Under the pieces are notes generated by a model, which worked only from the letters and a program-made list of their open reading frames with translations, made no database searches and was not told where the DNA came from. Position numbers and translations under genes: made by a program. 64,000 nt of DNA from Escherichia coli (GTDB lineage: Bacteria; Pseudomonadota; Gammaproteobacteria; Enterobacterales; Enterobacteriaceae). Of this stretch, positions 45,045 to 46,353 are shown one piece after another. The stretch is taken from assembly GCF_050920415.1 (NCBI RefSeq), contig NZ_CP169309.1. One strand, 5' to 3'. Position 1 is the first letter of the stretch; every line of letters starts with the position of its first letter.

Positions 45045-45532
45045 TAAGCCCCCACGTAATTCCCTGACAGATACCACTCTTCACCCGATGCAGCGCGCTT
45101 GCTACTTTTCCGTAAGCACCGCTCACGACGCGCCAGAAAATTGTTTCGTTCTGGCAGGGAGTGGCTTTCACGGAATGCCGCCATCCACACGGTTGCAGCA
45201 CGACGAAATAAGCCCCTGGACTCCAGTTCTTCCGCCTGGCGGGTCAGGCACAAAATCACCCGTGGATCGTTAGTGCCGACATAGAAATTGCGCACAGGTC
45301 TGGTTTCACGAACTGGTTGTGGTTCCGGCTCCTGCGCTCTCTCAGTCAGGCGTGGGAAATGTCTGCGTGTATCTCCTTCACAACGGTGAGCCACACGCCC
45401 ACTCTGACGTAACTTGCTTGCTGACTGCAGAACGCGCTGTCGTGAGTAACCAGCAAAAGCATCCGCAATGTCTCCGGAAGTACACCCCGGATGGGCTTCA
45501 ATGAATTTCTGAACTTCATTCAAAAGACTCAT
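45044..45532 (-). CDS. PerC-family transcriptional activator-like protein
   Basis: LESRGLFRRAATVWMAAF resembles the PerC motif. Confidence 0.5.
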   Translation of the reverse strand: MSLLNEVQKFIEAHPGCTSGDIADAFAGYSRQRVLQSASKLRQSGRVAHRCEGDTRRHFPRLTERAQEPEPQPVRETRPVRNFYVGTNDPRVILCLTRQAEELESRGLFRRAATVWMAAFRESHSLPERNNFLARRERCLRKSSKRAASGEEWYLSGNYVGA

Positions 45533-46353
45533 AATCCCCCCCTGAATCCTGCCGGGATCTGGCTGTAGTCCACGTTGTCGTAACTGGCTTTGAAGTACGG
45601 GTCCTCGCGTCTGGCTGCAGATACCGCAGGAACTTCCCAGGATTCTTCGAAATGACGATCCGGACCAAAGAACGTGACAGCCTGTTTCACAAATTGTGTG
45701 CCGCTGTTACCCATCGCAGATACCCAGCCCGCGTAGCGTTTCACACCTTCCAGCATGGTTTCGGGGTTTACTCCCTCATTCAAACGGGCTTTCCAGGCTT
45801 TGAAGGCTGCAGATTTTGAATTGCCACCAGCACGTTTGGGATATGCCAGCCATGCCTGCTCAAACTCCGGAGAGTATTCCGGTCGGTTTGAACGAACTCG
45901 CACGGACTCATCAACTGATGCACCAACAGCTATTGGTTCATTGACTGGTTCTTTGACTGGTTCAAAAGAGTGACTGGTTCTGGGTGAATCTCCTGCACTA
46001 CCCCCTGGTGCAACTCCTGCACTACCTGGTGAATTTGCTGCACCAGATAGTGAATTATTTGCACTACCCCCTAGTGAATCTCCTGCACCATCCAGATGAA
46101 GGAGATAGATATTACTTGAGTTACCTTTTTCACCTTTCCGGGTGACTTTTTTTACCAGCCCGGACTCACAAAGGGCCGCAATATGATTCATCACAGAACG
46201 TTTGCTAATCTCGCACTGGTCAGCAATATGCTGGTAGCTGGGCCAGCACTCACCCTGATCGCTGGCATTATCAGCCAGCTTGATCAGAACCAGTTTTCGC
46301 AATGGATTACCCACTCGAATTTTCATCGCTTTAACCATCAGCTCCATACTCAT
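45529..46353 (-). CDS. Putative replication initiation protein (O-like), containing the iteron-type repeats
   Basis: N-terminal HTH (LADNASDQGECWPSYQHIADQCEISKRSVMNHIAALCESGLV), central low-complexity region encoded by DNA repeats; position downstream of cro/cII. Confidence 0.55.
   Translation of the reverse strand: MSMELMVKAMKIRVGNPLRKLVLIKLADNASDQGECWPSYQHIADQCEISKRSVMNHIAALCESGLVKKVTRKGEKGNSSNIYLLHLDGAGDSLGGSANNSLSGAANSPGSAGVAPGGSAGDSPRTSHSFEPVKEPVNEPIAVGASVDESVRVRSNRPEYSPEFEQAWLAYPKRAGGNSKSAAFKAWKARLNEGVNPETMLEGVKRYAGWVSAMGNSGTQFVKQAVTFFGPDRHFEESWEVPAVSAARREDPYFKASYDNVDYSQIPAGFRGGL
45986..46090. repeat. Candidate origin iterons, four ~20-25 bp imperfect direct repeats
   Basis: TCCTGCACTACCCCCTGGTG / TCCTGCACTACCTGGTG / TGCTGCACCAGATAGTG / TTGCACTACCCCCTAGTG inside the initiator gene, as in lambda O. 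Confidence 0.55.

Follow-up and report, generated by a model that had tools for sequence, protein, structure and literature searches.

A lambdoid prophage replication module with a putative origin inside its initiator gene, no detected helicase loader and a DnaT-like tip on the initiator

In the replication module of phage lambda (O, ori-lambda and P), the initiator gene follows cro and cII in the early rightward operon. Its middle part, which codes for a linker joining the DNA-binding N-terminal domain to a C-terminal interaction domain, contains direct repeats with internal dyad symmetry. Replication modules have reportedly been classified by Weigel and Seitz (2006). The term "ILH-type" appears in a paper that cites them. 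According to a 2025 paper, 34 of 314 lambdoid phages have an O homologue only, the plaque-forming phage LLS among them; their replication is called not understood, and whether they rely on host DnaC or on a non-canonical partner is left open (PMC12315714). The O-only module of LLS, whose initiator is gp44, resembles the locus described below in that its initiator gene stands alone, without a loader or helicase (in mEp460 and in the prophage studied here, none is found in the whole phage genome), and in that the surrounding genes are the same, among them leftward-operon genes of the yfdP/yfdQ/yfdR type. The loader-less arrangement is already known; the new lead is a DnaT-like tip on the initiator.

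Here, we examine the replication module of a prophage in the window, by which we mean the whole stretch of 64,000 nucleotides of Escherichia coli DNA that was analyzed. We read it, with moderate confidence, as a module for theta-type replication that belongs to a lambdoid prophage resembling SfV, mEp460 and the Stx2c phages, with its origin inside the initiator gene and without a phage helicase or loader, to which host DnaB–DnaC would be recruited. The "replication protein" gene of SfV (orf39), mEp460 (gp43), cdtI and the Stx2c phages is the same gene as the window initiator. These relatives have 97% DNA identity over a 3.4-kb query and 98–100% identity over the C-terminal 121 aa, and they differ from the window copy in iteron number and in the two-residue C-terminal extension of the window copy. 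The genes and protein domains concerned are the following:

45529–46353, minus strand: replication initiator gene, 274 aa (open reading frame; PGAP CDS WP_000061530.1; PHROG 270; Pfam HTH_36)
46090–46353, minus strand: N-terminal winged-helix domain of the initiator, presumed to bind the iterons (Pfam HTH_36, Foldseek)
45616–45888, minus strand: helical C-terminal domain of the initiator with the motifs YPKRAGGN..K and TFFGP, without a solved structural relative
45044–45532, minus strand: 162-aa PerC-like regulator (Pfam PerC 1.4e-7; PHROG 1324), its start overlapping the end of the initiator gene
46350–46574, minus strand: 74-aa open reading frame (PHROG 1153, unknown function, 1.3e-45; no Pfam or NCBIfam family), with an ATGA overlap with the initiator gene
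46571–47722, minus strand: 383-aa Ash + Rha regulator (Pfam Phage_ASH 2.9e-15, Phage_pRha 1.3e-30)
47719–48270, minus strand: YmfL, a CII-like activator encoded in the rightward early operon, which continues into the initiator gene (Pfam Phage_CP76; PGAP ymfL)
48314–48514, minus strand: Cro-like YdaS-family gene ymfT, first of the early operon (PGAP)
48605–49279, plus strand: ymfK, a CI-like repressor that includes an S24 peptidase domain (open reading frame; PGAP "LexA family protein"), divergent from the early operon

The gene order is that of lambda in its main lines: a cI-like gene on the plus strand and then, on the minus strand, the cro-like gene, the YmfL/CII-like gene, Ash/Rha, the 74-aa open reading frame and the initiator. 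A preliminary description of this DNA had named the 74-aa open reading frame, a Rha-like gene and a PerC-like regulator as the neighbors of a replication initiator at 45529–46353. Both statements hold. Pfam and PHROG agree on the neighbors, and the initiator is an exact minus-strand open reading frame and a PGAP CDS, annotated at the identical position in the 100%-identical record NZ_CP169399.1, whose product matches PHROG 270 ("replication initiation protein") at 1.7e-88.

Pfam HTH_36 matches the initiator at 1.8e-11 (44 bits, against a cut-off of 25), and there is a weak DnaD_N match as well; NCBIfam gave only sub-threshold helix-turn-helix matches. The protein is composed of a winged-helix N-terminal domain (aa 1–88), a disordered linker (aa 89–155), a helical C-terminal domain (aa ~156–246) and a flexible tail (aa 247–274), the AlphaFold2 pLDDT being >90 at aa 1–88 and 158–245 and 45–64 in the linker. 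When the full model was compared with the PDB by Foldseek, the matches were to winged-helix regulators only, all of them to the N-terminal domain, with the DnaD N-terminal domain (2v79) among them. Judged by its profile match and its predicted N-terminal fold, the protein is an HTH_36-type winged-helix phage replication initiator (PHROG 270). It had also been called O-like, which is apt for its lambda-type layout but not for its sequence kinship: Pfam Phage_rep_O (PF04492) gave no match at E <= 0.1, the best E value for lambda O against the window by tblastn was 3.7, and on these comparisons the initiator is not a sequence homologue of lambda O.

Searches of the PDB sequences with the whole protein and with a 47-sequence profile of the C-terminal domain gave chance matches or none, and in a profile–profile comparison of this domain with DnaT the probability was 36%, at which value we do not claim a DnaT-like core. 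By a DnaD-like C-terminal domain we mean the class that bears the PHROG label "DnaD-like helicase loader". The same C-terminal domain as in the window initiator is found in modules that pair the initiator with a DnaC-like protein (Rac YdaU–YdaV, Shigella phage 75/02 Stx gp15–gp16) and in those with both DnaC and DnaB (phage ASU11, Klebsiella prophages); the Klebsiella and Citrobacter homologues share its N-terminal domain and iterons too. Unlike the window module, however, all of these carry their own loader, with or without a helicase, and those with their own DnaB have the C-terminal tips ..KLTF, ..NLNF, ..DCNW and ..WARGNQ.

The putative origin lies in the middle of the initiator gene and includes the following elements, which have no strand of their own:

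45984–46098: five iterons of 24, 21, 21, 24 and 25 bp (repeat search, TRF, manual count, exact-match scan)
45984–45998, 46008–46022, 46029–46043, 46050–46064 and 46074–46088: iteron cores, GTGMAWNNNNTGCAC, 15 bp, with partial dyad symmetry
45934–45983: block of 12-bp repeats (TGGTTCWTTGAC; GAACCAGTCA-type) coding for the conserved peptide PRTSHSFEPVKEPVNEP, immediately following the iterons when read along the gene (repeat search, TRF)
45940–46101: frozen synonymous sites, codons 85–138, the inferred extent of a cis-acting origin core
46089–46132: most AT-rich 40-bp stretch of the initiator gene, 67.5% A+T, adjoining the iterons on the upstream side

Repeat search and TRF returned a period-24 array of 4.6 copies at 45984–46088, and as a positive control the same repeat analysis recovered the four annotated iterons of lambda. 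Four imperfect repeats of 17–25 bp at 45986–46090 had been described previously; the direct repeats are real, but they number five, measure 21–25 bp and extend over 45984–46098. Exact matches to GTGMAWNNNNTGCAC occur five times in the 64-kb window, every one inside 45984–46088, whereas allowing one mismatch gives 10 matches across the 64 kb, no excess over the 7.2 expected by chance; hence, the iteron signal is the clustering of exact matches. The iterons occupy 31–45% of the initiator gene length, compared with 39–48% in lambda O. In 80 related viral contigs, each initiator gene has 4–8 cores and none is found outside the gene. This variation in iteron number is seen among genes that are otherwise near-identical, and the corresponding proteins, of 242–302 aa, differ almost solely by repeat units. 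A Klebsiella homologue with the same N-terminal domain has the same iteron core and the same 24/21/21/24 spacing; the SfII initiator, whose N-terminal domain is different, has different 15-bp repeats.

In comparisons with the Klebsiella, Citrobacter and Vibrio homologues, the same amino acid is encoded by the same codon in 38/39, 40/40 and 18/21 cases within codons 85–138, against 59/135, 67/137 and 30/92 in the rest of the initiator gene (Fisher p = 1e-10, 7e-11 and 1e-5). Synonymous sites frozen in this manner point to a cis-acting DNA element, with selection acting on the DNA itself, and they mark out a compact putative origin of ~160 bp. Over the 41-nt stretch that leads from the last iteron into the GAACCAGTCA-type block, Vibrio phage D67 agrees at 38/41 positions and has zero synonymous changes.

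It could be argued that the repeats are nothing but the by-product of a repetitive Gly/Ser/Ala/Pro linker peptide and that the true origin is located elsewhere, since they code for a low-complexity linker, GGSANNSLSGAANSPGSAGVAPGGSAGDSP, which AlphaFold2 predicts to be disordered, and every period is a multiple of three. A constraint on the peptide alone, however, would leave the third codon positions free, and the synonymous sites are frozen exactly at the repeats. Furthermore, the cores have dyad symmetry, the repeat sequence tracks the type of N-terminal domain across phages, and the position of the repeats matches that of the lambda origin, so that we judge the by-product explanation highly improbable. 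The origin-within-initiator arrangement proposed in the preliminary description is supported by the PHROG 270 match, the winged helix, the mid-gene iterons, the variation in their number and the frozen synonymous sites, and we consider it very likely that the gene contains an origin and encodes its cognate initiator.

There are several differences from lambda. The window module has no detectable O homology, five iterons instead of four, no block of 80% A+T and no P gene; the C-terminal domain of its initiator belongs to a different fold family and has a DnaT-like tip, whereas lambda O ends ..DWIYGVDL. The A+T maximum per 40 bp is 67.5% upstream of the iterons and ~60% downstream, as against 80%, on the downstream side, in lambda; a lambda-grade AT-rich block beside the iterons is absent, and the downstream side is taken by the conserved, non-AT-rich repeat block. 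This GAACCAGTCA-type block (45934–45983) is a candidate unwinding or loading site. A scan for promoters and terminators gave nothing above chance.

A winged-helix initiator alone on iterons is the plasmid pattern (RepE, TrfA, pi), and the plasmid initiators share with the window module the tandem iterons and the probable use of host DnaB and DnaC, although the two are not known to be related in sequence. The phage origin could be imagined to function in the manner of RK2 or pSC101, with host DnaA near the iterons bringing DnaB–DnaC and the tail of the initiator having no role. Plasmid Rep proteins also bind the unwound strand sequence-specifically (PMC4081077). Unlike the plasmid origins, however, that of the window module is embedded in coding sequence and has no DnaA boxes nearby: there is no DnaA-box-like site (TTATCCACA, <=1 mismatch) within 1.3 kb, the nearest, both with one mismatch, being located >1.3 kb off at 47731 and 43530. 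Moreover, the prophage encodes a homologue of YfdR, and the K-12 YfdR binds DnaA and inhibits the binding of DnaB to DnaA–oriC (PMC4776307). A plasmid-like, DnaA-mediated mode seems very improbable to us.

The preliminary description had seen no P-like or DnaC-like gene between the initiator and the nin genes, and our searches not only agree but extend this observation to the complete genome of mEp460, a viable and near-identical phage. A canonical loader domain was looked for in the open reading frames adjoining the initiator by Pfam, PHROG and NCBIfam, and none was found. The 64-kb window and the whole mEp460 genome were also searched by tblastn, the queries being lambda P, three DnaB proteins, E. 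coli DnaC and four DnaC-like proteins of phages; no match was better than E = 0.2, and the annotations of the mEp460 genome and of the window prophage include no loader or helicase. Among viral loci of the window type, 73/73 are without a loader or helicase gene, 70 of them with at least 2.5 kb of downstream sequence. Judged from its gene content, the phage has no helicase or helicase loader of its own, and it probably depends on both host DnaB and host DnaC.

A non-canonical loader might nonetheless be hidden beside the initiator, the candidates being YmfL, the PerC-like protein and the 74-aa open reading frame. No function is known for the 74-aa protein, and ATGA overlaps join both its gene and the PerC-like gene to the initiator gene, a hint of translational coupling, in particular of the 74-aa open reading frame to the initiator. 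To our knowledge, however, 74 aa is far below the size of any known loader. The neighbors are also different elsewhere: SfII and mEp460_4F5 have a 112-aa open reading frame upstream, Tritos a DUF977 gene downstream and LLS a methyltransferase gene downstream, and the 74-aa open reading frame is missing at the equivalent position in the other loader-less modules. The PerC-like protein is unrelated to Tritos gp37, the product of the gene in the same position, and was rejected as a conserved partner. The remaining neighbors bear regulator domains; those of the 383-aa Ash + Rha protein (Phage_ASH and Phage_pRha) rule it out as a loader. Since they are not conserved among independent loader-less modules, the neighboring open reading frames are poor candidates for a hidden partner, and such a loader appears quite improbable.

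In the reading that we favor, the initiator itself would recruit the host machinery. Dimers of its N-terminal winged-helix domain would bind the iterons and form a nucleoprotein complex like the lambda O-some, and transcription from the early promoter would pass through this initiator–iteron complex. Either the GAACCAGTCA block or, on the opposite side, the 67% A+T stretch would open, and host DnaC would load host DnaB at the phage origin. Lambda's O–P contact would be replaced by the C-terminal part of the initiator, the best candidate being its flexible tail ending IPxGFRG. This tail may copy the conserved C-terminal end of DnaT, the host factor that acts immediately before DnaB–DnaC joins the restart primosome, and its tip could dock on DnaB–DnaC directly, or on PriA or DnaT. 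The sequence in question is:

45538–45564, minus strand: SQIPAGFRG, DnaT-like C-terminal tip (BLASTP, 8/9 residues identical to the C-terminal SQIPPGFRG of E. coli DnaT)

The initiator and E. coli DnaT have in common the extreme C-terminus ..(S/T)xIPxGFRG, and in 105 DnaT orthologues IPxGFRG is conserved at ~90% or more. The initiator differs from DnaT in having neither the Pfam DnaT domain (PF17948) nor a DnaT-like N-terminal domain, and in its predicted sequence-specific binding to the double-stranded DNA of an origin. Taken by itself, the window protein matches DnaT over a short stretch only: the observed score is reached by 58/2,000 shuffles of the full protein and by 3/2,000 shuffles of its last 40 aa. 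In the Tritos-type initiators the likeness to DnaT extends to VNxxSEPDxxIPPGFRG; the Tritos and 75/02 Stx initiators have 13/18 residues in common with DnaT, with a local score of 82 that is reached by 0/2,000 shuffles.

Every loader-less enterobacterial module examined has the tip, and in these modules it is carried by three unrelated C-terminal domains: that of the window type, that of SfII and mEp460_4F5, which is of the lambda-O type (31% identity to lambda O, E = 6e-23), and that of LLS gp44, which ends IPEGFRG. LLS gp44 and SfII gp41 differ from the window initiator in their iterons as well as in their C-terminal domains. Apart from host primosomal-protein genes in two Salmonella contigs, a tblastn search with the tail found nothing but initiator genes in phage records, all of the matches being from Enterobacterales. 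Among 159 viral loci with the tip, which are not phylogenetically independent, a DnaB-like gene is found in 0, no loader in 139 and a DnaC-like gene only in 20; in opposition, 78/79 similarly non-independent loci with the ..LTF tip have both DnaC-like and DnaB-like genes, and homologues with other tips have a DnaC-like gene and usually a DnaB-like one too. These counts come from three viral-contig scans, of 80 near-identical loci of one type each, which serve for counts within a type and not as independent lineages. For the latter, representatives at 50% identity were looked up singly (contig P0186, too short, was left out), and these further lineages are in agreement with the pattern. At the level of lineages, the association of the tip with the loader-less state is 5/10 versus 0/6, which by our own count is marginal (one-sided Fisher p ~0.06).

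Several observations limit this interpretation. The tip is also found beside phage DnaC-like genes and hence is not specific to loader-less modules. Vibrio phage D67, which has the same domains and a different tail, has no DnaC-, DnaB- or P-like gene in the 45 kb examined, and this counts against a recruiting role for the tip, as does a 2026 preprimosome study that favors the DnaT N-terminal domain as the recruiter of DnaB/DnaC. In the literature covered, we found no description of a function for the DnaT tip. Our suggestion that the DnaT-like tip is the recruiting element is a tentative one, and it seems somewhat unlikely, albeit worth considering, that IPxGFRG is a true molecular mimic of the host DnaT C-terminus that brings host DnaB–DnaC (or PriA) to the phage origin.

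The same tip could also be accommodated by a different route, in which the initiator only marks and opens the origin and DnaB is loaded there by host PriA–PriB–DnaT, the substrate being the opened DNA, an R-loop or a D-loop. The tip would then put the initiator in DnaT's place on PriA, or cap the DnaT filament, with no DnaB–DnaC contact. In favor of this route, the tip matches that of DnaT, and the C-terminal domain of DnaT, according to the literature, binds PriA as well as assembling into filaments on single-stranded DNA. In addition, growth of the LLS-type O-only phages needs RecBCD/Chi recombination, according to the paper describing them (PMC12315714), and the replication of phage Mu and of pBR322 needs DnaT (PMC4129139). 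We consider such a primosome-dependent route unlikely.

The window copy of the initiator has an extra GL after the tip because the usual TGA stop reads GGA, a change seen in 1/79 junctions surveyed. These two extra residues, together with frameshifted genes in the prophage, mean that this copy may be impaired. The module itself is present in plaque-forming or inducible phages (mEp460, SfV, cdtI and the Stx2c phages), and it is widespread: among the 5,426 complete genomes of E. coli, 3,113 match parts of the 3.4-kb query and 492 contain 80% of it or more.

The module occurs in Shiga-toxin-, CDT- and serotype-converting phages; the level of replication may influence the copy number of Stx phages and, through it, the toxin dose. 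If the tip is indeed a mimic of DnaT, this would explain how such phages dispense with a P-, DnaC- or DnaB-type gene, and the tip offers a concrete and cheaply testable handle on how loader-less phages borrow the host helicase. The step at which DnaB–DnaC is recruited in replication restart was called unknown in the 2026 preprimosome study. If our reading of the tip holds, it would bear on the handover from DnaT to DnaB–DnaC in replication restart and, conversely, the tip of DnaT would be a docking element for DnaB–DnaC in the restart primosome.

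The replication initiator of this lambdoid prophage lies where the preliminary description had placed it, and it is annotated at the same position in a 100%-identical chromosome (NZ_CP169399.1), in which the prophage adjoins yjjG and a tRNA-Leu cluster. The features concerned are:

45529-46353, minus strand: replication initiator, 274 aa (ORF)
45984-46088: period-24 repeat array (repeat search and Tandem Repeats Finder), inside the initiator gene
45934-45983: second repeat set, 12-bp, TGGTTCWTTGAC, directly after the iterons
45940-46101: codons 85-138 of the initiator, with synonymous sites frozen (codon comparison, three homologues)

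PHROG 270 ('replication initiation protein') is matched at 1.7e-88, and Pfam HTH_36 is recognised in the N-terminal part of the protein. In an AlphaFold2 model built from a 111-sequence alignment, aa 1-88 form a winged helix and aa 158-245 a helical domain, both predicted with confidence; the linker between them (aa 89-155) is disordered, and the tail beyond the helical domain is flexible. With this model Foldseek returned winged-helix DNA binders only, the DnaD N-terminal domain among them. The helical domain, with motifs YPKRAGGN..K and TFFGP, is widespread (4,496 clusters at 50% identity matched at E <= 0.001), usually as the C-terminal portion of proteins of 240-350 aa. No solved relative came up: a profile run against PDB sequences was empty, and the best Foldseek E was 2.2.

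Given this domain layout, the iterons are encoded in the disordered linker. They occupy 31-45% of the gene length; as a control, the same repeat tool recovered the four annotated iterons of lambda O, at 39-48% of that gene. The array coordinates of the preliminary description proved correct, but its count of four repeats did not: five units of 24, 21, 21, 24 and 25 bp can be read by hand at 45984-46098. Each contains a 15-bp core, GTGMAWNNNNTGCAC, the ends of which are partial inverted repeats (GTGCA/TGCAC), and within the 64 kb of the window this core occurs exactly five times without mismatch, always inside a single 105-bp stretch. In 80 related viral contigs there are 4-8 cores per initiator gene, mostly 5, and none in the flanking 6 kb on either side. 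Homologues range from 242 to 302 aa, a difference due almost solely to the number of linker repeat units. Two variants, P0028 (250 aa, on 64 contigs) and P0042 (242 aa), have an iteron-coding linker reduced to one or two units and may be origin-defective prophage copies. A Klebsiella prophage initiator with an N-terminal domain 67-75% identical retains both the core and the 24/21/21/24 spacing; phage SfII has a different HTH_36-type N-terminal domain and unrelated 15-bp repeats, and the ASU11 repeats are 12-bp. Across these sequences, the repeat type goes with the type of DNA-binding domain.

That the repeats are a mere by-product of the linker peptide is the least probable of the rival explanations, being contradicted by the synonymous sites. 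Among amino acids identical between two homologues, we compared the rate of identical codons in codons 85-138 with that in the rest of the gene: 38/39 vs 59/135 for Klebsiella locus L004 (Fisher p 1e-10), 40/40 vs 67/137 for Citrobacter locus L255 (p 7e-11) and 18/21 vs 30/92 for Vibrio phage D67 (L265, 2105-2965; p 1e-5). Recent recombination could imitate such freezing in a single pair; for three pairs that differ so much in overall divergence it is a poor explanation. A 41-nt stretch 3' of the iterons (TCACCCAGAACCAGTCACTCTTTTGAACCAGTCAAAGAACC) is identical at 38/41 positions in Vibrio phage D67. Despite the divergence of the proteins, the nucleotide sequence of the block at 45934-45983 (GAACCAGTCA repeats, coding for PRTSHSFEPVKEPVNEP) is near-identical among phages of E. 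coli, Klebsiella, Citrobacter and Vibrio; the block may serve for unwinding, as the site of a host factor or as a peptide motif.

The origin proposed inside the initiator gene is thus supported by four independent lines: variation in repeat number, repeats that match the DNA-binding domain, frozen synonymous sites and the position in the early operon. This position is shared with lambda; lambda differs in having an 80% A+T block, whereas in the initiator gene the richest 40 bp, upstream of the iterons, reach 67.5%. A DnaA-dependent, plasmid-like route is very improbable: DnaA-box-like sites are absent within 1.3 kb of the iterons, and the phage encodes a homologue of YfdR, a protein that in K-12 binds to DnaA and inhibits the association of DnaB with DnaA-oriC complexes (PMC4776307). 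Homologues of yfdP, the yfdQ family and yfdR lie in the leftward operon (50529-52445, plus strand), and phage LLS has the same genes; they could free host DnaB-DnaC for a phage without its own helicase or loader.

Pfam, PHROG and annotation bear out the neighbours named in the preliminary description. The initiator gene adjoins a 74-aa ORF (PHROG 1153, unknown function), and its region a 383-aa Ash+Rha regulator; upstream are YmfL/CII-like and Cro-like genes, and downstream a PerC-like regulator, a frameshifted Dam gene, a LexA-DNA-binding-like protein, RusA, KilA-N, DUF968 and Q. The reported lack of a helicase loader also held: Pfam, PHROG and NCBIfam revealed no DnaC/IstB, DnaB, lambda-P, DnaD/DnaI or DciA-type domain in the neighbouring ORFs, and tblastn with E. 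coli DnaC, four phage DnaC-like proteins, three DnaB proteins and lambda P gave a best E of 0.2 across the whole window and the complete 44.5-kb genome of phage mEp460, which carries the same module at 97% identity. A loader hidden among the neighbouring genes is improbable, since these neighbours differ among loader-less modules. PGAP lists the Dam gene (44392-45044), a lysis gene and others as frameshifted; with these pseudogenes the prophage is probably partly decayed and may be decaying still. The 316-aa ORF at 44127-45077 (minus strand) is a frameshift fusion. In the late region, three tRNA genes (Arg, one of undetermined type, Ile; 38290-38542, minus strand; PGAP, identical record) are flanked by a DNA methyltransferase gene and a TerB-family gene.

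The same replication module occurs in SfV, cdtI, Stx2c and some Stx2a phages, and a 3.4-kb module query matched partially in 3,113 of 5,426 complete E. coli genomes, with at least 80% of the query in 492. The loader-less arrangement is already on record, because a 2025 Genome Research paper on phage LLS (PMC12315714) describes the replication module of that phage as having an O homologue only; it counts 34 such O-only phages among 314 lambdoid ones. Known and very common, the element is not novel.

The last residues of the initiator are ..DYSQIPAGFRG(GL) and those of E. coli DnaT, as translated from MG1655, ..PDSQIPPGFRG; the IPxGFRG tip is conserved at ~90% or more in 105 enterobacterial DnaT orthologues. 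Taken by itself, the window protein gives a short match (for the last 40 aa, 3/2,000 shuffles reached the observed score), but in relatives the match recurs at greater length: the terminal sequence of the Tritos and 75/02 Stx initiators is VNHISEPDTEIPPGFRG vs VNTVSEPDSQIPPGFRG in DnaT, with a local score of 82 reached by 0/2,000 shuffles. The tip is terminal in ~10/110 diverse representatives. Three unrelated C-terminal domains share a tail of 24-31 aa, and all three come from loader-less modules: the type studied here, that of SfII gp41 and mEp460_4F5 (homologous to the C-terminal domain of lambda O; 31% identity, E = 6e-23) and the third type of LLS gp44, which ends ..VDTKIPEGFRG. The form REDPYFKxSYDNVDYSQIPAGFRG, or ..VDTKIPEGFRG, stands on differing N- and C-terminal domains (SfII gp41, L088 3161-4102; mEp460_4F5, L089 3122-4102; LLS gp44, L263 8214-9068). 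By sequence, the tail acts as a unit that can be exchanged independently of the domains. In phage records, tblastn with the tail found replication-initiator genes only, in Escherichia, Shigella, Salmonella, Klebsiella and Pantoea and including Rac ydaU; many are annotated 'primosomal protein I'.

C-terminal tips of initiators (P-numbers, homologous proteins or clusters) and accompanying loader and helicase genes; the viral loci counted are not independent of one another
IPxGFRG; 159 viral loci; no loader 139, DnaC-like only 20, DnaB-like 0
IPxGFRG; P0149, P0156, P0135, P0158; ~247-aa DnaC-like gene only
IPxGFRG; P0211; neither DnaC-like nor DnaB-like gene found nearby
..LTF; 79 viral loci; DnaC-like and DnaB-like in 78
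..NLNF, ..DCNW, ..WARGNQ; P0088, P0077, P0129; ~291-aa DnaC-like and DnaB-like
Other tips; P0140, P0154; DnaC-like only

Among the modules examined, every loader-less enterobacterial one bears the DnaT-like tip and no tip-bearing one has its own DnaB. The tip also occurs beside phage DnaC-like loaders, and at the level of lineages our own count of tip vs loader-less state is 5/10 vs 0/6 (one-sided Fisher p ~0.06). The partner of tip-bearing initiators is a DnaC-like protein of ~247 aa, if there is one at all. Other tail classes recur on this C-terminal domain, ..(K/N)L(T/N)F, ..DC(N/D)W, ..P.WA(R/K)G and ..IPDWARD (L004, L255, L256, L090 and representatives), and where examined are paired with a longer ~291-aa DnaC-like protein and a DnaB-like helicase. 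Vibrio phage D67 (OZ195694.1; L265, L266) has the same N- and C-terminal domains, a different tail (..DNGDWSSK) and no DnaC-, DnaB- or P-like gene in the first 45 kb of its 60.7-kb genome; it may represent a loader-less module with a non-DnaT tail. Vibrionaceae loaders are themselves described as often replaced by phage genes (PMC11087808).

At 45529-45540 the window copy has GGA in place of the TGA that normally stops translation after GFRG; this adds Gly-Leu, and the gene ends at a TGA overlapping the ATG of the next. This change was seen at 1/79 junctions surveyed in related viral contigs; a 278-aa cluster, P0016, likewise ends GFRGGL. The copy in this prophage may be impaired if the tip has to form the very end of the protein.

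The module thus combines an early-operon initiator with iterons and an adjacent block conserved as DNA, and phage loader and helicase are absent; the preliminary observation is confirmed and its interpretation supported. Winged-helix dimers would bind the iterons, a neighbouring block would open and host DnaC would load host DnaB, with the C-terminal part of the initiator standing in for the O-P bridge and the DnaT-like tip acting as a docking peptide. This peptide may dock on DnaB-DnaC, on PriA or on DnaT. In preprimosome structures from 2026 the C-terminal domain of DnaT sits on PriA and on single-stranded DNA; the same study suggests the N-terminal domain for DnaB/DnaC recruitment and calls the recruitment step unknown, and the papers examined are silent on the C-terminal tip. 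A PriA-PriB-DnaT route, though unlikely, is the most credible of the rival explanations. With an origin delimited to ~160 bp and a DnaT-like tip, the mechanism becomes directly testable.
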